Positions 4,753 through 41,471 of a stretch of 48,956 bases of DNA are shown here, piece after piece; positions within the stretch are counted from its first letter, which is position 1; each line of letters begins with the position of its first letter. This DNA is from Candidatus Enterousia sp. (GTDB lineage Bacteria > Pseudomonadota > Alphaproteobacteria > Rs-D84). The position numbers and the translations under genes are program-made. Below the pieces are notes generated by a model. That model was not told where the DNA came from and did no database searches. It was given only the letters and a program-made list of their open reading frames with translations. The stretch spans positions 1 to 48,956 of the forward strand of contig JAZRSI010000056.1 in assembly GCA_045651445.1 (NCBI GenBank), read 5' to 3'.

Positions 4753-7488
4753 ATGTCTGAAAATATCAATGAAGTAAACGAAGTAAGGGTTCCACAGTCG
4801 TCATTAGAACACGAAATGCGGACCAGTTTTTTGGATTATGCGATGTCGGTTATTGTTGACCGTGCGTTACCAGATGTTCGCGATGGTTGTAAACCTGTTC
4901 ATCGTAGAATTTTGTACGTTATGAACGATGTTGCGCCTGCGACAAAGCCAACGGTTAAGTCTGCGCGTATTGTCGGTGATGTTATGGGTAAATACCATCC
5001 ACATGGCGATAGTTCTATTTACGAAGCGATGGTTCGTATGGGACAAGATTTTTCCATGGGTGAAATGTTGGTCCAGGGGCAGGGTAACTTTGGTTCACGC
5101 GACGGGGACAAGGCGGCGGCTATGCGTTACACCGAAGCCAGACTTTCAAAACTTGGCGCATCCTTGATGGATGATATGGAAAAAGATACGGTTGATTGGA
5201 TGCCGAACTTTGATGGTTCGTTACAAGAACCGGTTGTGTTGCCTGCGAAGTTCCCAAATTTCTTGGTTAATGGTGGTTCGGGGATTGCGGTTGGTATGGC
5301 GACAAATGTTCCGACTTATAATTTGGGTGAAATTTGTAATGGTATTCTGGCGATTTTGGAAAACAAAGATTTGTCAGATGATGAATTGTTTACGATAATT
5401 CCGGGACCTGATTTTCCAACGGGTGCAATGATTATGGGGCGTGCCGGCGCTTACAAGGCGCATACTACGGGGCGTGGTTCGATAATTGTTCGCTCTAAAA
5501 CACATATCGAAGATTTTCGTGATCATCAGGCGATTATTGTTGATGAAATTCCTTATCAGGTCAATAAGGCCCAATTGATTATAAAAATTGCCGAATTGAT
5601 AAAAGACAAACGTATCGAAGGTATTTCTGAAATTCGCGACGAATCATCCAAGGAAGGTTTGCGTATTGTTGTTGAATTAAAACGTGATGCGATTGCGGAT
5701 GTTGTTTTAAATCATCTGTTTCAGTACACAGAAATGCAAACAAGTTTTCCTGTTAATATGATGGCGTTAAATCGTGGTCGTCCGATGTTATTTAATGTGC
5801 GTGGTGTATTGGATGCCTTTATTGATTTCAGGGCCGAAGTTATACGTCGCAGAACGATTTTTGATTTGAACAAGGCGCGTAATCGTGCACATACTTTGTT
5901 GGGCTTGTCAGTTGCGGTTGGAAACTTGGACGAAGTTATTGAATTAATCAAATCCAGTCCAAATCCAGAAACGGCACGCGAAGCGTTGATTTCACGTGGT
6001 TGGCGTGCATCTGATATTGAATCTTATATTCAATTGATTGACGATCCAAACACAGAATACAAAGACGGAATGTTTTATATGTCCGAAGATCAGGCGCGTG
6101 CGATTTTGGAATTGCAGTTGCATCGTTTAACGGGTCTTGAACGCGACAAGATTCATGATGATTTAACGAATCTTGGTGCGACGATACGTGATTTATTGGA
6201 AATCTTGGGCAGTGCCGAACGCATTATGGAAATTATTCGTGATGAAACAATTTCTGTTCGTGATAATTGGGCGTCCCCACGTCGCACAGAAATTTCTGAT
6301 GCAGAAATTGACATCGATATCGAAGACTTGATTGCGCGCGAAGATATGGTTGTAACTGTTTCTAATACGGGTTATATCAAACGTGTTGCGCTGGATACGT
6401 ATCGTGCACAAAAGCGTGGTGGCAAGGGACGTAATGCAATGGCAACCAAGGATGATGATTATGTCGTTCAAGTATTTGTTGCAAATACTCATACACCATT
6501 ATTGTTCTTTAGTTCCAAGGGATTGTGTTATAAATTAAAGACATATAAATTACCAGAGGCTGCGGCTGCGGCCAAGGGGCGTCCATTGGTAAATCTATTG
6601 CCATTGGAAAACGGCGAAACGATTACTGCGATATTGCCTGTCCCCGAAGAAGATGTCGCACGCGTTACAGAATCTGGCAAAGAACATTTCTTGATGTTTG
6701 CGACGGCGTCTGGAACGGTACGTCGTAATCGTATGTCTGATTTTGATTCGATACGTGCGAATGGCAAGATTGCAATGAAACTGGACGAAGGCGATAGTTT
6801 GATTTCTGTACTGCCGTGTAACGAAGACCAAGATGTATTCTTGGCGACATATCGTGGTCGTGCAATTCGATTCCCTGTGCCGGAAATTCGTGTGTTTGCG
6901 GGTCGCAATTCGACTGGTGTTCGTGGTATTACATTGGGCAAAGACGACAGAATTATTGATATGGCGATGTTAAATCGTGGTGAATCCGATAGTGCAATTC
7001 GTGCGGCTTATATCAAGCAATCTCGTGCGACGCGTCGTGCGGAAACCGGCATCGAAGAAGAAGCAGATTCTGACGAAGAAGAAACAACACTTGTTCTTGA
7101 CGACGCGAAAATGGCGCAAATGGCGGCGGCCGAAGAATTTATTTTGACGATTTCAGAAAATGGATTTGGTAAACGAACCAGTTCGTATGAATATCGTTTG
7201 ACCCATCGTGGTGGTGGTGGTTTCACTAACATTAAACTGGGGGGCAAAAATACGGCTGTTGCGGGTTCGTTCCCTGTAACTGATAACCAAGATATTATAA
7301 TGGTTACAGATGGTGGCAAGATTATCCGTACACCTGTTTCGGATGTAAGAATTGCTGGGCGTTCAACTGCGGGTGTTACATTGTTCCGCACTGCTGAAAA
7401 AGAAAAGGTTGTATCGGCGATTTCAATAGAAGGTGCATCTGACGAAGATGCGGATGTTGTCGAAGCGACTGAAACGGTATCGGAATAA
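4753..7488 (+). CDS. gyrA: DNA gyrase subunit A
   Basis: Canonical N-terminus ([12 protein letters not shown], active-site-region [10 protein letters not shown]) and C-terminal beta-pinwheel repeats. 911 aa. Confidence 0.97.
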
Positions 7489-22654: not shown

Positions 22655-24136
22655 TTATTTTACACCACCGAACGCACCACCAAATCGTAATTCAGTACCG
22701 CCACGGTCTTGTTCAACATAGCCAAATGCCGCTGTTGCTTCTGTTGGTGTACCATTTGCGCCATAATATGTTGTTTCAAACTGTTGCTTGTAAACGTCTG
22801 TACCAACGATGGCCCAGTCTTCATTTTCACCCGTAAAATTAGAAAATTCAAATACCGCATCGTTATCTCCAGAACGGGTAATTTGAACATCATGCCAGTC
22901 AGAGAAAGACATATTTAGCTCTTCTGTCTGTGTGCTTGGGTTGAATGTCAGGGTCGCTTCGGCAGGGGCTAACAGTTTTTCTTCTTCTTCCAGTTTTACG
23001 TTCGCGATGGCTGTACCTGTAAACATCATCTCGGTTGCGTTATCAATATTTTTGACATCAATTTTCTTGTCGTCATATCCGCCTGCAAACATTCCATACC
23101 CAGGATTAGACGAATTGTTAGCCGACAATAATATCTGACCAAAGTCCGAATATTGCAAACCGATATCGCGCCCAAATGTTGTCATGTCTATGCTGTATGA
23201 AACTTCTTGTTCTTCCACATCCGCCAGGGTAATGTCTGATACATCTTCAATACTGCTATAGTCCTGTAATATACGTCTCAACTCTTCGTCTGTTGTTATT
23301 TTTGTAGCGGACATAAATTCGTGTCCATCAACTTCATATCTGTATCCATGGAAAGCAAATTGCGAATTAGTGTTAGAGCGGTCAAAAGTTCCGGCATCTG
23401 ACATATACATCTGTTTGATTTCGCCGTTGTTATCTAATTTGAGTTGAATGTATTCGCCTGCGTCATGGGCATTACCACGATAAAATTTTACACCACTCAG
23501 GTCAAATTCCTTGTATTGCATATCTTCTTTGGTCTGCTCAAAATCGTCTTTCAAGTCACCACCAATAATACCTGCAATAAACCCTGCCAGGCCTGCACAA
23601 TCGTCAGAGTCTAAAAAACTATCAAAATCCCCCGCACTGCCACCAATAAGCGTAAAGGCATCTTTCAGGTCATTGATAAATTTGTTATATGCAGCTTCCC
23701 CTTGTTCTTTGTACTCGTTCAGTTTGGCCAACAAATCTTCGTCCGATTTATCAAACCATCCCATGTGATTAATCTTGCCCTTAGCCCATTCCCAGCGTTT
23801 GTCATTATCCATACCATGACCTGCACGCAAAGAATATGTGGCGGCAGATGTTTCTTCGTCTTGGTATGTTTTGCCCAATGTCTGTTCAACCATATCAATC
23901 AATTCTGCACGATTGTCCAATGCAATACCTGTCACAGATGCATTTGATGCCCGAACAGTATCGCTAATCGTTTCTGTAATCAATACTGGTGCTTCTATGG
24001 TTGGTGTATCTGGGGTGTTTGGTGTTTCTGGAATACCTGGCACATCACCAATGCCGGCACCGCCACCTGAACCGCCACTGCCACCACCACATGCGGCCAG
24101 TGCTAAAACAGATGTCAATAATACAAGTTTTTTCAT
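22655..24136 (-). CDS. Surface-lipoprotein candidate 1 (TbpB/fHbp-like C-terminal barrel; putative Slam/T11SS substrate)
   Basis: Lipobox LALAAC followed by GGGSGGSGGG linker. The C-terminus (...TEATAAFGYVEQDRGGTELRFGGAFGGVK) resembles the terminal strands of Neisserial surface lipoproteins. Confidence 0.65.
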   Translation of the reverse strand: MKKLVLLTSVLALAACGGGSGGSGGGAGIGDVPGIPETPNTPDTPTIEAPVLITETISDTVRASNASVTGIALDNRAELIDMVEQTLGKTYQDEETSAATYSLRAGHGMDNDKRWEWAKGKINHMGWFDKSDEDLLAKLNEYKEQGEAAYNKFINDLKDAFTLIGGSAGDFDSFLDSDDCAGLAGFIAGIIGGDLKDDFEQTKEDMQYKEFDLSGVKFYRGNAHDAGEYIQLKLDNNGEIKQMYMSDAGTFDRSNTNSQFAFHGYRYEVDGHEFMSATKITTDEELRRILQDYSSIEDVSDITLADVEEQEVSYSIDMTTFGRDIGLQYSDFGQILLSANNSSNPGYGMFAGGYDDKKIDVKNIDNATEMMFTGTAIANVKLEEEEKLLAPAEATLTFNPSTQTEELNMSFSDWHDVQITRSGDNDAVFEFSNFTGENEDWAIVGTDVYKQQFETTYYGANGTPTEATAAFGYVEQDRGGTELRFGGAFGGVK

Positions 24137-24159
24137 GTTTTGCTCCTTTTTTGTTGTTA

Positions 24160-25518
24160 TCAGAATCTTTGTTGCATCGTGAATTCTATTGCCGTCTTGT
24201 TATATTCCCGTTGCCATATATTTGAATCCCGTTGTGTATAGCTGAATGTAATTGTTGGTACAAAGCCCCATATATCCAATTTGTTGTTTGATAGTGACAT
24301 GGCATAACGATGTGTAAAGTCCCGCTCGGTTATTTCCTTGAATTGATTGTTATCCACCGTCCAACGCGCATCGTCATACAACGACCAATACACAGACGGT
24401 TCAAAATACGCATGAAATCCCCATGGCAATTCTGCACCCACCCCTACAGATAAACTTGGTTGCCAGTATGCGTATGTTGGACTGGTGGTGTCTTCACGGG
24501 TAATGCCGGCACGAATATTCATATACACACTTGCGCTAAATGAATATGTCAGGCGCGTGTTTGCTGAATAGGTCTGACCGCTCAAAAAATCCCCGTACAG
24601 GTCATATTCGTTATTCATAGCGCGCAGATACAATCCACCCGACAACCTGCGCGTAAAGTCATAATTTGTGTCCAATCGTGCGCCCACAGACCAGTTATAT
24701 TTTTCCCACCCATACCAACGCCGCGCCACAATACCCGCCAACCAAACATCCCCACGATTCCAAACAAAGCGTGGCCCAGTTGATGCACCGATGTACATGT
24801 CGTCAAATTCGTGTTTGTCATATATGTTGCTGTATATGTTTGCTTCTGATTTCCATCGCCACTGGTCAGACAATTTGAATTCATAAGACCCACCCAAGGT
24901 CAGATTTGTCCCGATTGCAGATTCCGGTTCATTCAAATCACGACACATCAGCCCGAACATAGTCGCCACACATTCTTGACCACCGGCGGCATTATTTACA
25001 TTGTTATCTGGCGCAGCCCCAATATTGAACCATACGTTCCAATTCTTATTCTTTCGCACGATATACCGGTAATAGTTCATAAGCCCGCGTGCATTTTCCG
25101 GCAAATCTTTTCCCGCCATGGCAAGGCGCAGATGATAGTCTGCACGTGACCATTGTTCGGTGTGCATATAGCAAGTTGCCAATTCAAACCGTATGCGCGC
25201 CAGGTTTGGTTGGTCGTCCAGTATCTTGCGATATATCTTGATTGCGGATTCATAATCACCGCGTTTTTGGGCAATCTGCGCCAATAAAAACCATCGCTCT
25301 ATTTCCAATGCCACATTATTCATTTTTGGGGTCTGGGTCAGGATTTGCAGCGCATGGTCATAATCCCCATTGTCAACCATTGTTCCGGCCAGTTGCATTG
25401 CCTGTGTCGTGGTCATGGTGATTTCTTTTGGGGTATTTTTTGTTTTGGTATCAGATTTTGCCCAGGTCACCCCAGGCAAAACCATAACCAACGCAAAGAT
25501 TAAACAATACAGACGCAT
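24160..25518 (-). CDS. Slam-family outer-membrane protein (TPR N-domain plus DUF560 beta-barrel; type XI secretion component)
   Basis: Signal peptide. TPR-like helices (GDYESAIKIYRKILDDQPNLARIRFELATCY...), then alternating beta-strand region ending in ...EFTMQQRF. Flanked on both sides by lipoprotein genes. Confidence 0.72.
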   Translation of the reverse strand: MRLYCLIFALVMVLPGVTWAKSDTKTKNTPKEITMTTTQAMQLAGTMVDNGDYDHALQILTQTPKMNNVALEIERWFLLAQIAQKRGDYESAIKIYRKILDDQPNLARIRFELATCYMHTEQWSRADYHLRLAMAGKDLPENARGLMNYYRYIVRKNKNWNVWFNIGAAPDNNVNNAAGGQECVATMFGLMCRDLNEPESAIGTNLTLGGSYEFKLSDQWRWKSEANIYSNIYDKHEFDDMYIGASTGPRFVWNRGDVWLAGIVARRWYGWEKYNWSVGARLDTNYDFTRRLSGGLYLRAMNNEYDLYGDFLSGQTYSANTRLTYSFSASVYMNIRAGITREDTTSPTYAYWQPSLSVGVGAELPWGFHAYFEPSVYWSLYDDARWTVDNNQFKEITERDFTHRYAMSLSNNKLDIWGFVPTITFSYTQRDSNIWQREYNKTAIEFTMQQRF

Positions 25519-26568
25519 TTATTGGGCCGCTTTCCCACCGAACGTAGAATGGAAATGAACGGTATTGCCAATCGCACCTTCCAGGTCATACGCCCCAAGT
25601 TCAGCGGTCGCTTCACTGGCTGTGGTGTCTTCACCATAAAAATTCACCGAAACAAACGCGCCATCCATATCGTCCATAGAAATACGTTCTGACACGTTCG
25701 CCAGTGTAAATGTATCATTTATGGATACGTTGTTTGGATTAGAAAACACCACTGTTTGCCCTGTGCTATCGGTGGCATTGTTGAGTGTGACCTTATACCA
25801 TTTGTCCGCATCAGATTTTGTAAAATCCATTGCCAGTGTGTATTCCCCTGTTGTGCCATTGAATACCAGATTTGCATCGTCTGTGTTTGTTATCATCACA
25901 TCCGAGCCATCTGTATAACTGTCGGCCCCAATTACAGCCACTGCGGCACCAGTAAATGCCTTTGTCCCATTGATTGTTTGGATTTCTTTGTCTGGATTGC
26001 CTGCCAACAGTGCTGACCATGTTGTATCTGTTCCATACCCTGGTGCTATCTCTTTTACATACATCATACCAAAGTCGGCAAATTTCAGCCCAACATGTCT
26101 GCCATAAAGTTGAACCGCACCGTCTTCTAATACTCCTTCATTTTCGCCATCAGGATATTCTACACTTGAAATCTTGCCTGTTTCTGGAACGATATGATAT
26201 GTGACACTGTTTGTTTCGCCTTCTGGGGTTTCCCAAGTTTCTGCCAGTGCAACGATTTGTCCTTTGGCATTGGTTTGTATGGAAAGCCCGCCACCAAATG
26301 TGACATTTTCAACTGGTAAAAAACCATCTATTTCAGGTAAGTCAGGATTTGTTGTATCGTCTTCATTTCCAGAATCCGTCCCTGGATTGTTTGTATCATT
26401 ACCGTTGTTATTTTCGTCACCGGTATTATCGCCCGTATTCGGTGTGTCTGTATCAACGATTGGTGTGTCTGGTGTTGGGTCGCCTGTGTATCCACCACCT
26501 GAACCACCGCTGCCGCCACCACATGCAGCCAGTGCCAGAACAGATGTCAAAATCGCAAGTTTTTTCAT
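25519..26568 (-). CDS. Surface-lipoprotein candidate 2 (putative Slam/T11SS substrate)
   Basis: The first ~25 aa, including the LALAAC lipobox and GGGSGGSGGG, are the same as in candidate 1. Long Asp/Asn/Thr/Gly/Pro linker. C-terminus ...ATAELGAYDLEGAIGNTVHFHSTFGGKAAQ. The stop abuts the Slam start with no spacer. Confidence 0.65.
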   Translation of the reverse strand: MKKLAILTSVLALAACGGGSGGSGGGYTGDPTPDTPIVDTDTPNTGDNTGDENNNGNDTNNPGTDSGNEDDTTNPDLPEIDGFLPVENVTFGGGLSIQTNAKGQIVALAETWETPEGETNSVTYHIVPETGKISSVEYPDGENEGVLEDGAVQLYGRHVGLKFADFGMMYVKEIAPGYGTDTTWSALLAGNPDKEIQTINGTKAFTGAAVAVIGADSYTDGSDVMITNTDDANLVFNGTTGEYTLAMDFTKSDADKWYKVTLNNATDSTGQTVVFSNPNNVSINDTFTLANVSERISMDDMDGAFVSVNFYGEDTTASEATAELGAYDLEGAIGNTVHFHSTFGGKAAQ

Positions 26569-26594
26569 GTATAACTCCCATGTATAAAATTAGA

Positions 26595-26823
26595 CCGCCA
26601 TGGGACATCAGGCGGCCGGGGAGTTCACAAATCAGTATATCGTTGATTCTGTTGCCTTTGGGTTGCCCCTGTTGTATAGCAAACAGCTCCCCGACTTAGC
26701 AAGTCAGGGATAAATAACGACACAAAACCACAGGAATGACATCGGATAACGATGCCATACGCAATTTTGCACCGGATATACTAGGCTTGTGACAGCCCCG
26801 AACCCATATCCCTATGGATTCAA
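26595..26823 (-). promoter_or_regulatory. Conserved structured 229-nt 5' leader, copy 1 (candidate riboswitch or cis-regulatory RNA of unknown class)
   Basis: Duplicate of identical length at 40908-41136. Closing helix, conserved stems with variable loops, minus-strand-only G-U pairs, GGG-GCAA-CCC hairpin, and a 3' hairpin just before the SD/ATG at 26568. Confidence 0.6.
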
Positions 26824-26828
26824 TTCAT

Positions 26829-26857
26829 AGTGTATCAATTAGATTAATCAATTTCAA
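26829..26857 (-). promoter_or_regulatory. Putative sigma70-type promoter for leader copy 1 (TTGAAA-17 nt-TACACT)
   Basis: The -10 ends 5 nt before the conserved block. Copy 2 has the same geometry. Confidence 0.4.
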
Positions 26858-26994
26858 GCCCAAACCAATTTATCAATTATCCGTTATTTATTGACCGAAT
26901 AAATTACGTTTGTTGTCTCAAACCACCCTGAATGGACAGATTTTTTGATGTCCAAGCAAGGTCTAAGCGAGCATAGCCAGACTAGAATTTTTTA

Positions 26995-27088: not shown

Positions 27089-27640
27089 ATGAAGTTTTTG
27101 TACGCACGTGTTTCTTCTTTGGGGCAAAACGAAGAACGCCAATTAGTAGATACTGAACAATATGATAGAACATACGTTGACAAGTGTTCCGGCAAAGATG
27201 CAGACCGTCCACAACTGAAAGCCATGATGGACAATTTGCGCACTGGCGACAGTATCACATGTCATTCATTGGACCGCTTGGCAAGAAATACATTTGACCT
27301 GTTGGAATTGGTAAAAAAAATCACTGAATCTGGTTGCTCTGTGGAATTCAAAAAGGAAAATCTGAAATTTGAACCCAATAAAGACAACTGCCTGAACAAC
27401 CTAATGCTGCAAATACTAGGCGCAATCGCTGAATTTGAACGCTCATTAATCAAGACTAGACAGGCCGAAGGAATCGCCATTGCAAAAGCCAAAGGTAAGT
27501 TCAAAGGTGGCAGCAAGAAATTATCCGCCTTTGATGCCGCAGAATTGAAAGAACTGGTGACTAACAAACGCATCAGCATCAAGGAAGCACAAAAGCGCTA
27601 CGGCATCTCCCGCGCATCTGTTTACAACTACATTAAATAA
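27089..27640 (+). CDS. Small serine recombinase (resolvase/invertase family)
   Basis: N-terminal YARVSSLGQN catalytic-serine motif and C-terminal HTH (ISIKEAQKRYGISRASVYNY). 183 aa. Confidence 0.9.
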   Translation: MKFLYARVSSLGQNEERQLVDTEQYDRTYVDKCSGKDADRPQLKAMMDNLRTGDSITCHSLDRLARNTFDLLELVKKITESGCSVEFKKENLKFEPNKDNCLNNLMLQILGAIAEFERSLIKTRQAEGIAIAKAKGKFKGGSKKLSAFDAAELKELVTNKRISIKEAQKRYGISRASVYNYIK

Positions 27641-27667: not shown

Positions 27668-29428
27668 TTATGGTCTCCACATCGGCATCATTGGCCACTG
27701 TCCCATTGCCATCTGCGGAGCTTTCGTTGCGATTATGCGCGCTGCTTCGCTAGAATATCCCATTTTTTCATACTGTTTGATTAGAACCCTTTTTTCTTCG
27801 TCTTCCCGTTTCAAAATCGCCAATCCAGCAGGGTCCGACACCAATTTCAATCCCTTTGGTTGCGTATTGGCATTATTCATTATTTCAGATACAGATTTTT
27901 CACTTTTGCTACTTTTTTGTTTTGCTTTTGGTGCGTTTTCTGGTTGGTCTTGGAACAGAATGTCTATATGTGGAAATGATAGTGTGTTTGCAATTTCTAT
28001 CATTTCTTCACTGGCATTATCGTAATTAATGTTGGTATAAACGCCAAGAGAAATAAAGCGCTTTGAGTGTTTTTGACCAGCAATTGCTTCACATCCAACG
28101 GCACCGGCGCGTGAAACATTTGATGTATAGAACGAGTGTTTCAGCGAATGTACGTCCTGCATAATATCGCCGTCCTTGAACCCCAATGTTTTGAATAGCA
28201 GGTTTAGATTTTCGTTTGCTGTTTGGGTTCTATACCCTGTCTTATTCTTATTTTTTACAATTTTTTCAAACAAGAACGCATCCGGTCCATATTCTTTTTG
28301 TTGTTTTTTTACAAATTCGCAAAAACCTAATAACAATAAAGCATCAGCAATAGGCACCTTGCGTTCAGAACTTTCAGTTTTTAGTTTTTTGAGAGCTTCT
28401 CGTGGGTCATTTTTCTTCAAAAGGTATTTGTCCCTGTGAATCCAGATGTAGTTTTCTTTCAGGTTTATATCACGAATACGCAGGGTATCAATAGCGTTCG
28501 CACGTGCGCCAGTAAACAGCAACAATAAAATTATATAGTAGTAATGCTCAAAGTTGTCGCGTATATTGACCAAGCGTGTGCGTTTCCCTTTGAATTCGTC
28601 ATTTGCTATTATGTCATTTATTGTGCGAAAGTTTCTGTTTTTTAGTTCGTACATCATTGTAAAAAGCTTCTGGAACTTCTTTTCACTGAATCCATCTCGC
28701 ACTGTTGAACTTTTGAAAGCATTCAGATTAATGTCTTCAATTTCTTCAAAGATGGCCGCTTTAGACTTGATAACTTTTTGTCTTCTTGCTTCTGCTATTG
28801 TTTTCTTTAGCACTTTTATTGTCTCCTTTATGGTTTTGGCGGAATATTTTTCGCCTTTGTGTGTGCCTTGTGGGATTTTATAGGCTTCTAACTTCCGAAT
28901 AGCATCGTGTATCATAAGTGGGTCTCGTTCATAGTCTTCCATATAAGGGCTAGCAAAATTATTAATCAGAAGTTCTAATCGCTTTGTGTCGCGGATATAT
29001 TGTGAGCTAGAGTTATGATTTACCCGATTTTTCCAAAAATCTACAATATTGGTTTTGGTGTTTTGTTTCACATTCTTGGTTCCTGCCATGTCGTTTCTCC
29101 TTTCAATGCAGGTTGTGGGGGCACTAACCATCGGCCCTGTTGTTATATAAGAACTGTTCGGAGAAACGTGTTTTGAAAAATAAATAAAAATTTTTTTATT
29201 TTTTTGTGCTGTGCCAATATTGTGCTCTGCATTCAGTATCTGTCTAACTAAATATCGCGCCAAATCGGGGTCACTGGTGTGTAGTGAACGCAGGTATCTT
29301 TTTCCCTTTACCATGCGGCGCAGATAAAAAATTCCATTGCGTACACACAGATTTTTTGCATAAGTGGGGGCCAATTCATTTGATGTAAAATTGGTATCAA
29401 AATCAGATAAAAAAAGAGCTGTCTTCAT
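27668..29428 (-). CDS. Tyrosine recombinase / phage-type integrase (long form, 586 aa)
   Basis: Catalytic-domain pattern (TGARANAIDTLRIRDI ... HSLKHSFYT ... LGVYTNI). Adjacent to the tRNA-Gln target. Confidence 0.8.
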   Translation of the reverse strand: MKTALFLSDFDTNFTSNELAPTYAKNLCVRNGIFYLRRMVKGKRYLRSLHTSDPDLARYLVRQILNAEHNIGTAQKNKKIFIYFSKHVSPNSSYITTGPMVSAPTTCIERRNDMAGTKNVKQNTKTNIVDFWKNRVNHNSSSQYIRDTKRLELLINNFASPYMEDYERDPLMIHDAIRKLEAYKIPQGTHKGEKYSAKTIKETIKVLKKTIAEARRQKVIKSKAAIFEEIEDINLNAFKSSTVRDGFSEKKFQKLFTMMYELKNRNFRTINDIIANDEFKGKRTRLVNIRDNFEHYYYIILLLLFTGARANAIDTLRIRDINLKENYIWIHRDKYLLKKNDPREALKKLKTESSERKVPIADALLLLGFCEFVKKQQKEYGPDAFLFEKIVKNKNKTGYRTQTANENLNLLFKTLGFKDGDIMQDVHSLKHSFYTSNVSRAGAVGCEAIAGQKHSKRFISLGVYTNINYDNASEEMIEIANTLSFPHIDILFQDQPENAPKAKQKSSKSEKSVSEIMNNANTQPKGLKLVSDPAGLAILKREDEEKRVLIKQYEKMGYSSEAARIIATKAPQMAMGQWPMMPMWRP

Positions 29429-29472: not shown

Positions 29473-29491
29473 TGTGGTTGGGGCGCACGGA
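29473..29491. repeat. attR: 19-bp direct repeat TGTGGTTGGGGCGCACGGA within and next to the tRNA-Gln 3' end
   Basis: Identical to 21102-21120. Confidence 0.85.
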
Positions 29492-29548
29492 TTCGAACCA
29501 TGATAAAGAGAACCAAAATCTCTTGTCCTACCATTAGACGACACCCCA
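29475..29548 (-). tRNA. tRNA-Gln (anticodon UUG), CCA encoded
   Basis: Cloverleaf by hand: TGGGGTG/TC/GTCT-AATGGTA-GGAC/A/AGAGA-TTTTGGT-TCTCT/TTAT/CATGG-TTCGAAT-CCGTG/CGCCCCA/A/CCA. Confidence 0.9.
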
Positions 29549-40420: not shown

Positions 40421-40876
40421 TTATTCCGAAACACCAATACTGTTGAACATTTGGATTCTCGTATTAACATTGGTACAGAAACTAAGATCTCCAATAGAAC
40501 AATACAAAGAACAGTTTTTAGAACAGTCTGTGTTAGTTGTGTGTTTGGCTCTTTGTACCCAACCTGAAATGACGGGATGCGATATTCTGCAGTAACAGAA
40601 TATACGATTTTCGCCATTTGCATCAACCCCACTTAGCCCCGGGGAAAATTGTTTTTGGTTAACCTCGGTCTGGGAAACGCATGTTGCCTCACCCGCAAGA
40701 CGTCCGTACGAAAACTGTGCCCACCACGACCATTCTGCGGCGTTGTTGCCAGTTGAACTGCATTTAACCTGTGGATCAAATACCAGCACCATAACATTAT
40801 CACGTGCGCACATATCTGTTGCATTTGCAAACATTGGTGCCGTACAAATTAACGTCGTAAAAATAATTTTTTTCAT
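40421..40876 (-). CDS. Small secreted Cys-rich hypothetical protein (151 aa)
   Basis: AGGGGATG SD. Signal peptide MKKIIFTTLICTAPMFANA. Preceded by leader copy 2. Confidence 0.65.
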   Translation of the reverse strand: MKKIIFTTLICTAPMFANATDMCARDNVMVLVFDPQVKCSSTGNNAAEWSWWAQFSYGRLAGEATCVSQTEVNQKQFSPGLSGVDANGENRIFCYCRISHPVISGWVQRAKHTTNTDCSKNCSLYCSIGDLSFCTNVNTRIQMFNSIGVSE

Positions 40877-40907
40877 TTGTATCATCCCCTGTGTAAAAAA
40901 AATTAAA

Positions 40908-41136
40908 CCGCCAAGGGATTCTAAGCGGTCGGGGAGTTCACAAATCATTCTGTTATTGATTCTGTTGCTTTTGGGTTGCCCCTATTGTATAACAAACAGC
41001 CCCCCGACTTTTATATAGTCAGGGATAAATAACGACACAAAACCACAGGAATGACATCGGATAACGATGCCCCCATATTTTGTACCGAACAGAACGGGCT
41101 TGTGACAGCCCCGAACCCATATCCCTATGGATTCAA
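40908..41136 (-). promoter_or_regulatory. Conserved structured 229-nt 5' leader, copy 2 (ends in a hairpin plus U-run terminator)
   Basis: Same length and architecture as 26595-26823. On the minus strand, CCGCTTAGAATCCCTTGGCGG is followed by TTTAATTTTTTTT. Confidence 0.6.
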
Positions 41137-41141
41137 GTTGT

Positions 41142-41170
41142 ATTTTATCATTAAAAATCTGAAATGTAAA
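41142..41170 (-). promoter_or_regulatory. Putative sigma70-type promoter for leader copy 2 (TTTACA-17 nt-TAAAAT)
   Basis: The -10 ends 5 nt before the conserved block. Confidence 0.45.
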
Positions 41171-41199
41171 ACGAATAAGAAATTGCGAATAATATCTTT

Positions 41200-41471
41200 G
41201 TCATCCCTGCGCAGGCAGGGATAGGGACTATAAGTTTCCCCGCCACCGCCGACCCCCGATGTGGGATAGTTCCCCTCCATTGGAGGGGTGTCCGCAGGAC
41301 GGGGTGGTTAGAGCGTTCGTAATTATGCACCTATATACCGCACTCTCTTACCACCTCCCGGCTGCGCCGTACTCCTCCAACGGAGGAGAACTTCTTTTTT
41401 TGCCTGCACCACGAAGTTTTAACGAAGTGGTGTGATCCCTGGGCAGGCAGGGATAGGGACCTTAAAATTTA
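41200..41471. repeat. GC-rich palindromic (MITE-like) element cluster
   Basis: TCATCCCTGCGCAGGCAGGGATAGGGAC at both ends (41201, 41433). CACCACGAAGTTTTAACGAAGTGGTG hairpin. Internal CCCCTCCattGGAGGGG and CTCCTCCaacGGAGGAG hairpins. Strongly GC-rich against an AT-rich background. Confidence 0.7.

Follow-up and report, generated by a model that had tools for sequence, protein, structure and literature searches.

A multi-copy leader RNA of Candidatus Enterousia with two competing pairings at a terminator hairpin: a putative transcription attenuator

We analyzed a window of 48,956 nucleotides (nt) from Candidatus Enterousia sp. (GTDB lineage Bacteria; Pseudomonadota; Alphaproteobacteria; Rs-D84), covering positions 1 to 48,956 of the forward strand of contig JAZRSI010000056.1 (assembly GCA_045651445.1). 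We propose that two similar blocks in this window encode a cis-acting 5' leader RNA of ~245 nt that functions as a transcription attenuator, a reading to which we assign a probability of roughly 60%. The element is a structured RNA read from the minus strand; its helices covary, two of its pairings exclude each other, and it reaches from a promoter to a start codon. At its 3' end transcription would either stop, probably by default, or continue under the influence of an effector. It is a new leader RNA, present in many copies throughout the lineage, whose terminator/antiterminator exchange is well supported and whose core remotely resembles sRNA-Xcc1.

The blocks had been noticed in a first-pass annotation of the window, which described them as identical at most positions, equal in length (229 nt) and placed on the minus strand. 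Alignment of 26560-26860 with 40870-41175 (both minus strand) confirms this: ~285 nt can be aligned with 83-87% identity, starting at TTGAATCC and ending slightly beyond a GC hairpin, and the flanks are unrelated. The equal length is real, but it is the product of two mutually cancelling 2-nt indels. When copy 1 was compared with the window by BLAST, copy 2 was the sole match (82.7% over 289 nt, E = 4e-79) and no third copy was found; a covariance model (R1, cmsearch) likewise gave nothing else in the window above 10 bits. The whole covariance-model match, from the first hairpin to the U run, spans 26581-26824 for copy 1 (217.1 bits) and 40894-41137 for copy 2 (216.7 bits), both on the minus strand. 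Folded as minus-strand RNA, the copies reach -96.8 and -87.0 kcal/mol, respectively, corresponding to z = -6.2 and -4.8 relative to dinucleotide shuffles, with none of 200 shuffles equally stable. The differences between the copies indeed lie in loops with the stems preserved, as had been observed by eye, and include one fully compensated helix, AGUAUAUC/GAUAUACU in one copy versus GUUCUGUU/AACAGAAU in the other.

Homologues of the element were found from two sides. The exact look-up of the lipoprotein encoded 3' of copy 1 returned no record and homologues were used in its place; one of them (70% identity, in a metagenome-assembled genome (MAG) named 'Alphaproteobacteria bacterium') lies on a contig where the element occurs three times, each time immediately before a different gene and in the orientation of that gene. 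Several short-read contigs terminate within the element, as would be expected of a repeat. A search pattern written from five distinct copies, GAATCAN{8,12}TGATTTNNGAACNNCCCGRCC, was then scanned against one genome per species and found the element in at least 117 stretches, with 87 assemblies among the matches listed, so that the recurrence seen in the window is beyond chance. All of these stretches belong to MAGs named Candidatus Enterousia, Alphaproteobacteria, 'Rickettsiales' or proteobacterium, from rumen, gut and faeces. Among the matches listed, the taxonomic range is that of the Candidatus Enterousia / Rs-D84 gut Alphaproteobacteria, an order of uncultured, fermentative bacteria with genomes of ~0.75-1.0 Mb that is common in animal and human guts (PMC12306168). 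Diverged copies beyond the reach of the pattern were obtained with a covariance model built on the alignment described below. The plasmid and phage collections gave no match in a BLAST search of the block in distant mode, and viral contigs gave none to three exact 18-21-mers or a degenerate pattern.

The secondary structure was derived from an alignment (A3) of 67 diverse copies made with MAFFT without structural information, retaining the helices on which RNAalifold and our own mutual-information scan with average-product correction agreed. Standard pairs fill 95.1% of 3669 cells versus 80.6% in shuffles, and changes on both sides of a pair occur in 553 cells versus 164 +/- 13 after shuffling. 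The covariation score reaches 0.462, as against 0.196 for the shuffles and at most 0.077 when the partners are slid by 1-3 columns. The top ranks of the mutual-information scan are taken by the helices PK, P2, P5, P0, c:d and the terminator. G-U pairs are frequent (columns 71:173, GC 31 and GU 29; columns 75:169, AU 35 and GU 20) and thereby fix the strand, in agreement with the strand-defining G-U pairs first seen in the two copies.

The attenuator reading hinges on three short strands, b, c and d. In copy 1, the switching strand c (AGUCGGGGAG, 26687-26696, minus) can pair either with b (CCCUGACU, 26702-26709, minus), a mimic of d that yields the proposed anti-antiterminator hairpin, or with d itself (CUCCCCGGC, 26615-26623, minus), which overlaps the first 3 nt of the 5' arm of the terminator. 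Column mapping places the corresponding strands of copy 2 at 41017-41024 (b, again CCCUGACU, with a b:c stem of 8 bp), 41000-41009 (c, AGUCGGGGGG) and 40928-40936 (d, CUCCCCGAC, also overlapping the terminator arm), all on the minus strand. Across the family, b:c (b = CCCYGACN) is a local hairpin of 7-11 bp in most copies. The c:d helix (GUCGGGGNG with CNCCCCGAC) has 9-12 bp in nearly all copies and extends over GAC(CG), the 3-5 nt with which the 5' arm of the terminator begins.

Both pairings show compensatory change. In c:d, the column pair 238:315 is AU in 34, GU in 19, UA in nine, GC in three and UG in two of the 67 sequences, and broken in none. In b:c, a G-C pair is replaced by A-U in copies L070 and L027 and an A-U pair by G-C in L034, and the loop-proximal pair is U-A, C-G or A-U. 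The three strands also change in concert: L046 carries b CUCCUGACC, c GGUCAGGAGG and d CCUCCUGACC; L050 and L091 carry b CUCCAACC (CUCCAAUC in L091), c GGUUGGAGG and d CCUCCAACC; and in L063 each of the strands is one G or C shorter. Because b, c and d change together in diverged copies, both pairings must be kept by selection, and since they are mutually exclusive, the logic is that of an attenuator. The terminator-type expression platform suggested at first pass is thus supported and extended by an exchange that overlaps the terminator arm and covaries in concert. A conserved, covarying structured domain in the 5' leader and mutually exclusive terminator/antiterminator pairings, two of the general features of riboswitches, are both present. 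A leader peptide was considered and rejected (a short ORF follows c in L046 only and is not conserved), and correlated change indicating a pairing of the P0 loop with b was looked for and not seen.

The energies of copy 1 amount to -14.5 kcal/mol for the b:c hairpin, -12.9 for the terminator hairpin, -17.7 for the c:d duplex, -7.9 for P2 and -5.5 for PK. In a nested-only model, from which pseudoknot energies are excluded, the state combining b:c and terminator is lower by a mean of 11.3 kcal/mol and is the optimum in 94% of the copies. Since this state is energetically favoured in the model, termination would probably be the default and read-through would need help.

A same-strand open reading frame (ORF) starts within 250 nt of the U run in 111 of 116 examined copies, and the other five reach the contig end within 160 nt. 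The median gap to the start codon is ~14 nt and does not exceed 41 nt in 92 of the 111. After the terminal hairpin, at least five U are found within 9 nt in 59 of the 67 aligned copies. The copies each have their own sigma-70 promoter (-35/17/-10, often with TG) ending 5-9 nt before P0; a promoter equivalent to that of copy 1, with a different sequence, precedes 89 other copies, and these promoters are not homologous to one another. Because there is no room for a promoter before the start codon, the downstream gene lacks one of its own and must be transcribed through the hairpin.

In the window, a promoter scan recovered the two -35/-10 pairs with a 17-nt spacer that had been pointed out before: TTGAAA-17-TACACT (26857-26829, minus), ending 5-7 nt before P0 of copy 1, and TTTACA-17-TAAAAT (41170-41142, minus) in front of copy 2, both with TG before the -10 box. 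The GC hairpin followed by a U run, likewise described earlier, is present at both 3' ends. In copy 1 it reads GGCCGCC-loop-GGCGGUC with the U run UAAUUUUAU (26584-26617, minus), and three of its four stem pairs covary; in copy 2 it reads GACCGC..GGCGGUU with UAAUUUUUU (40897-40930, minus; -10.2 kcal/mol). A simple terminator scan misses both solely since their loop exceeds 8 nt. The same scan flags the b:c hairpin (26688-26710 and 41001-41025, minus), which is followed by the U-rich 5' strand of P5 (GCUGUUUGCU) and might be a pause site. The fold z-scores, the strong covariation over 67 diverse homologues and the own promoter together bear out the initial view of a structured, strand-specific 5' leader RNA.

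Upstream of the terminator, the RNA consists of a series of hairpins tied together by long-range helices (copy 1 coordinates, minus strand). The 5'-terminal hairpin P0 (GAAUCCAUA-GGGA-UAUGGGUUC, 26800-26821) has both-side changes in seven of its eight pairs. It is followed by P1 (GGGCU/AGCC, 26783-26798), a local hairpin in which G43-C54 is replaced by A-U in L051 and L013, and by P3 (26718-26774), a long hairpin rich in G-U pairs that carries the sub-hairpin CAUCG-UUAUC-CGAUG at its apex and has both-side changes in seven of eight basal pairs. P5 (26649-26686), which covaries and corresponds to hairpin 1 of sRNA-Xcc1, combines an AUACAA internal loop with the GGG-GCAA-CCC tip whose GNRA loop had already been recognized. 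Hairpin 2 (26630-26648) has a stem AAUCA/UGAUU that is invariant in the pattern-found copies, and its loop holds the 3' strand of P2 (GAUAUACU, 26634-26641). With its 5' strand (AGUAUAUC, 26775-26782), P2 is a hypervariable 8-bp helix with the strongest covariation of all, seven of its eight pairs being changed on both sides. A second long-range helix, PK, joins the P1 loop UCACA (26788-26792) to UGUGA (26625-26629). In the family, this is a pairing of UCNNA with UNNGA ~160 nt downstream, and none of the 67 sequences departs from standard pairing at columns 49:310 and 50:309, each of which shows three pair types.

In the diverged copies L063, L064 and L069, the hairpin 2 stem is exchanged for GGUUC/GAACC or AGUUC/GAACU, yet its 7-nt loop stays complementary to the 5' strand of P2, and the P1 loop likewise to the junction. 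As this complementarity is kept despite the new stem, hairpin 2, P2 and PK must all be under selection. The first-pass annotation had combined UCACA/UGUGA and CGGGG/CCCCG into one helix closing the block. Its UCACA/UGUGA half stands, with two variable pairs that are standard in all 67 sequences. The CGGGG/CCCCG half (a:d) does not: the 5' GGGG is part of P1, the A43 variants in L051 and L013 would break a:d, and the base by CCCC (column 315) covaries with the internal strand c (column 238) and not with the 5' strand. The partner of CCCCG is the internal GUCGGGG. Two pseudoknot helices, P2 and PK, link the 3' half to the 5' domain. Within P3, the sequence CAUCGUUAU occurs twice, in the apical sub-hairpin and at the 3' base (A3 columns 101-113 and 170-185). 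The region could alternatively form two tandem hairpins, and the repeated CGUUAU..YCC could be a putative paired binding site.

A further long-range match involves both termini of the RNA. The P0 apex, comprising the loop and the first part of the 3' strand of this hairpin, is complementary to the terminator apex, comprising the last part of the 5' arm and the loop, e.g., GGGAUAU/AUGUCCC in copy 1, GAUGUGAAUCUG/CAGAUUUGCAUC in L121, UGAAAAAC/GUUUUUCA in L075 and AAGAGAUUGG/UCAAUUUCUU in L047, and the match usually starts 0-6 nt past the end of d. Over 41 unique-sequence pairs, the mean best score is 15.5 (7.5 bp) compared to 11.7 +/- 0.44 after permutation, with none of 1000 permutations as high and a parallel-orientation control at 10.9, although the significance of this test is inflated by sequence relatedness. 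That the complementary pairs are varied argues for a real effect. The match could be a kissing contact that ties both ends of the RNA together, or a second part of the antiterminator.

A search of the window with Rfam 15 (4227 models) at gathering thresholds returned only the 5S rRNA and two tRNAs. In a permissive search, the whole sRNA-Xcc1 model (RF02221, positions 1-87) is covered by the 3' 89 nt of each copy, at 37.2 bits for copy 1 (E = 6.6e-5) and 34.6 bits for copy 2 (E = 2.8e-4), compared to a gathering score of 53 bits; the diverged copies score 44.7 (L063), 35.3 (L046) and 32.9 bits (L050). No copy in 15 scanned loci reaches the gathering score, and other Rfam matches in both regions are scattered with E above 0.2. 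The initial description of the RNA as unclassified consequently holds at threshold, but it needs the addition that the 3' 89 nt are a remote, below-threshold relative of sRNA-Xcc1. The two RNAs share the G-rich/C-rich closing stem, the AUACAA hairpin with its GNRA tip, hairpin 2 and the U-rich junction before the closing stem. The three-way junction of sRNA-Xcc1 is found in the Enterousia RNA with covariation in each helix (c:d at 238:315, P5 and its tip, and the exchanged stem of hairpin 2).

There are also differences. The Enterousia RNA adds ~130 nt at the 5' side (P0, P1, the 5' strand of P2, P3 and b), engages the hairpin 2 loop and the junction in two long-range helices, and has both a competitor, b, for the closing stem and a separate terminator hairpin. 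Whereas sRNA-Xcc1 is a free-standing RNA of ~88 nt, the Enterousia promoter lies ~135 nt upstream of c, and the intervening 5' domain is conserved and paired to the core. In a plasmid of N. vulgaris, the closing stem of sRNA-Xcc1 leads directly into a U run. Closing would therefore favour termination there, whereas it would oppose termination in Enterousia. Given the failing score together with the extra domain, the pseudoknots, the competitor and the separate terminator, we do not file the Enterousia RNA as a member of sRNA-Xcc1.

Besides Xanthomonas campestris, sRNA-Xcc1 is known from integron cassettes, plasmids, prophages and genomic islands of Proteobacteria. True members in three PLSDB records score 69-73 bits. 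Two of them (L128, NZ_CP116247.1, 2482-2572, 69.7 bits; L129, NZ_CP093017.1, 2498-2580, 72.6 bits) lie 35-45 nt upstream of a same-strand gene, a hypothetical gene in L128 and a BRO-family gene in L129, and UUCUUCUUUUU comes after the closing stem in L128. Members upstream of symE and of an ORF6N gene have been reported (bioRxiv 10.1101/2025.06.18.660453, 10.1101/2020.03.17.996009). By its sequence context, sRNA-Xcc1 may itself be a terminated leader. In two short derivatives of the Enterousia element (L100, ~4940-5038; L094, ~720-818), P0 is joined straight to the Xcc1-like junction, with P1, P3 and b missing, as if deleted between the similar motifs CGGGGCUGU at the 5' side and CGGGGAGCUGU in strand c. 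As they are without the competitor strand, these derivatives might read through constitutively.

The following mechanism explains these data best. Transcription from the own promoter of a copy would yield a compact scaffold with an sRNA-Xcc1-type three-way junction, formed by the closing helix c:d, P5 with its AUACAA loop and GNRA tip, and hairpin 2. The 5' domain (P0, P1 and P3) would be docked onto this scaffold by P2, between its 5' strand and the hairpin 2 loop, and by PK, between the P1 loop and the junction before d. The decision would be taken in the G-rich strand c (GUCGGGGNG). In the OFF state, c would pair with the upstream mimic b (CCCYGAC) and leave d free, so that the GC hairpin and U run stop RNA polymerase ~10-15 nt before the Shine-Dalgarno sequence. 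In the ON state, c would pair with d (CNCCCCGAC) and thereby sequester the initial 3-5 nt of the 5' arm of the terminator, which cripples the terminator and lets the gene be transcribed. The match between the P0 and terminator apices probably contributes to this choice or clamps the RNA ends. One shared cellular signal could tip the balance towards c:d and thereby co-regulate all copies in a genome. As the effector, a small ligand or ion and an RNA-binding protein appear equally probable, each with slightly better than one chance in three, followed by RNA-RNA or kinetic effects with slightly less.

Several points weigh against this reading. Strands b, c and d are mostly invariant, and the support for their pairings comes from a few variable positions and three diverged subfamilies. 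The permutation controls leave in the effect of sequence relatedness, and the search pattern fixed GAAUCA, UGAUUU, GAAC and CCCG, whose conservation in the main set is partly by construction. In addition, P2 and PK cross c:d, with which they either coexist as a pseudoknot or alternate; a single compact scaffold, in which the partner of c alone changes, is the simplest reading. The downstream genes share no common pathway and hence offer no effector candidate. Lastly, both termination and read-through are predictions from the sequence.

The downstream genes themselves are diverse. Among 111 downstream products, 64 are signal-peptide-like according to a crude rule, 16 of these with a lipobox, and of 80 distinct products scanned the majority has no Pfam match. 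Among those with a match are five Listeria-Bacteroides repeat proteins, GT2, GT4, GT6 and RgpF glycosyltransferases, a sulfatase-family enzyme, an outer-membrane beta-barrel protein, a TRL lipoprotein, a UvrD-type helicase, PLD and Mrr nucleases, NA-iREase1, DUF4268 and a helix-turn-helix (HTH) protein. The products of L076, L045 (two copies), L017, L027, L053, L015 and L042 are paralogous secreted proteins with an N-terminal motif T(S/A)xxYV(D/E)xxL/A, and those of L031, L064 and L103 have SRGFLDEAL..YATT in common. From their sequences, such leader-controlled paralogues look like expanded adhesin- or fibre-like families.

The alternative that survives best is a special case of the attenuator reading, namely a classical small-molecule or ion riboswitch with the pseudoknotted scaffold as aptamer, which we give about one chance in three. 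The RNA is large, its unpaired AUACAA, GAAUCA, UGAUUU, GAAC and CGUUAU are invariant across the 87 assemblies among the matches listed, and a GNRA tip, two pseudoknot helices and a terminator platform complete the picture; several copies per genome are also known for cyclic di-GMP (c-di-GMP) and T-box leaders, and no known class matches. However, orphan secreted proteins, adhesin-like repeats, glycosyltransferases, a helicase, nucleases and an HTH protein are unrelated functions that reveal no transporter or pathway logic, and no second-messenger enzyme is found among the listed Pfam matches in the window. As the genes belong to surface, glycan and defence functions and not to a pathway, a global signal fits better than a metabolite.

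An improbable alternative is a stand-alone small RNA of ~245 nt acting in trans, in line with descriptions of sRNA-Xcc1, with downstream expression as incidental read-through. An own promoter and an own terminator would suit such an RNA, in X. campestris its 88-nt relative sRNA-Xcc1 shows up in Northern blots as one band (PMC2996969), and the P0/terminator apex complementarity could compact and stabilize a released molecule. Against it stand the Shine-Dalgarno sequence and the same-strand start codon within 41 nt in 92 of 111 copies with no space for a promoter, and the concerted changes of b, c and d, which preserve a choice that affects the terminator alone. Moreover, the most variable parts (P2 and the loops) pair internally and leave no obvious target seed.

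Slightly less probable still is a constitutive leader that stabilizes or insulates the mRNA or controls its translation, for instance by masking of the Shine-Dalgarno sequence by d or the terminator loop, without regulated termination. A stable hairpin at the 5' end is known to stabilize mRNA in the ompA leader, and P0 occupies the extreme 5' end in a comparable manner. The C-rich sequences of d and of the terminator loop are complementary to G-rich Shine-Dalgarno sequences, but for a C-rich strand such complementarity to any Shine-Dalgarno sequence is uninformative. A stabilizer needs no two co-evolving, competing partners for c, and a conserved GC hairpin with U run before the Shine-Dalgarno sequence would block expression if never bypassed. 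A DNA-level repeat, i.e., a miniature inverted-repeat transposable element (MITE), a mobile promoter cassette or a resolvase recombination site shuffling surface-protein genes, is very improbable: the element is multi-copy, breaks short-read contigs, has short derivatives resembling deletions between internal repeats, and lies in copy 1 beside a divergent resolvase gene near an integrase and a tRNA, but the scatter in both orientations that would mark a plain MITE was not seen, all examined copies abutting the next ORF on its own strand, the upstream promoters are not homologous, compensatory changes with one-strand-only G-U pairs reveal selection on RNA, plasmid, phage and viral collections yielded no copies, and neither terminal inverted repeats nor target duplications came to notice, albeit without a search by a repeat tool.

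The attenuator reading also finds parallels in established systems. Terminator/antiterminator riboswitches of the SAM-I type and 1:2/2:3/3:4 attenuators share the large conserved 5' leader fold, a multi-way junction, a pseudoknot and one strand common to two exclusive helices, one of which overlaps the terminator arm before the Shine-Dalgarno sequence. In contrast to these, the genes form no pathway here, and no Rfam riboswitch, T-box or leader model matches. We know of no SAM-I-type riboswitch or classical attenuator in which the terminator loop covaries with a 5'-terminal hairpin. The JUMPStart/ops element with RfaH, and leaders served by NusG paralogues, resemble the Enterousia RNA in that a common element lies upstream of many unrelated surface, glycan and horizontally acquired genes, which by analogy suggests one global factor. 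Those are short DNA/RNA signals for long-distance elongation, whereas the Enterousia RNA is a 245-nt folded RNA with a local terminator. Finally, pT181 repC counter-transcript leaders and the hok fold-back are comparable in that a structure can be pre-empted or locked by a 5' segment with complementarity to the terminator region or 3' end, loop-loop kissing being the likely first contact. In Enterousia the complementarity lies within one RNA, and neither an antisense promoter nor a toxin ORF was found.

In the window, each block lies directly 5' of a minus-strand gene for an exported protein, as had been proposed. Copy 1 heads an operon (22655-26568, minus) with Shine-Dalgarno sequence GGGAG at 26575-26579 and ATG at 26566-26568, which encodes a 349-amino-acid lipoprotein (25519-26568), a Slam protein (24160-25518; Pfam PF04575, E = 5e-36, and PF24575) and a 493-amino-acid paralogous protein (22655-24136) that was retrieved as a homologue of the lipoprotein (P0032). 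The earlier description as the leader of a Slam operon is therefore correct in position; it is not Slam-specific, since the element heads many unrelated genes. Copy 2 precedes a 151-amino-acid protein (40421-40876, minus; ATG 40874-40876, Shine-Dalgarno sequence AGGGGA 40885-40890) that begins like a signal peptide and matches no Pfam family.

Directly upstream of copy 1, a 183-amino-acid serine recombinase of the resolvase/invertase type is encoded divergently (27089-27640, plus), followed by a 586-amino-acid tyrosine-integrase-like gene (27668-29428, minus) and a tRNA (29478-29548, minus). Because of these neighbours, the lipoprotein-Slam operon may be part of an integrated island. The orthologous operon in L001 follows a tRNA and is without these recombinase genes. 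Enrichment of tRNAs near copies was considered and rejected, as four of 15 scanned loci had a tRNA, about the chance level for an 8-kb window. Between rmuC and the copy 2 promoter, 41200-41320 (minus) is GC-rich with the palindromes CCCCTCCAATGGAGGGG and CCCTGCCTGCGCAGGG and ends in GGGATGACAAAG; a motif similar to this end (...CACGGGATGACAAAC) precedes copies in L022 and L026 and may be a separate small repeat or terminator module. Just after the 5S rRNA gene (8-122), two tandem ORFs of 128 amino acids (232-618 and 702-1088) share 64% mutual identity, the first having no Pfam match. At L046, both strands of a palindromic element (5164-5356) resemble Wolbachia sRNA 46 (RF02625), with 58.1 and 50.3 bits slightly under the cutoff of 65.3.

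In summary, one RNA leader placed before many orphan secreted-protein genes would, if the attenuator reading is true, be the main known regulatory device of Enterousia/Rs-D84. The orphan secreted proteins of this order probably mediate cell contact, and the leader would give a handle on the signal that is sensed. For RNA biology, it offers a large multi-pseudoknot leader with unusually clear evidence of two competing pairings, as well as a testable function for the long-orphan sRNA-Xcc1 family, which is also located just upstream of accessory genes. On a practical level, the repeat breaks short-read assemblies of these genomes at gene starts. Terminated leaders might in addition act on each other's nascent transcripts via the P0 and terminator loops and so couple all copies. 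With slightly less than one chance in three, the element could be an RNA sensor of a new class (a riboswitch or a switch made of RNA only) for a genome-wide set of surface, glycan-modifying and defence genes in ~0.9-Mb genomes with few protein regulators, in which case sRNA-Xcc1 would be the minimal cis-acting termination module that silences accessory genes by default.

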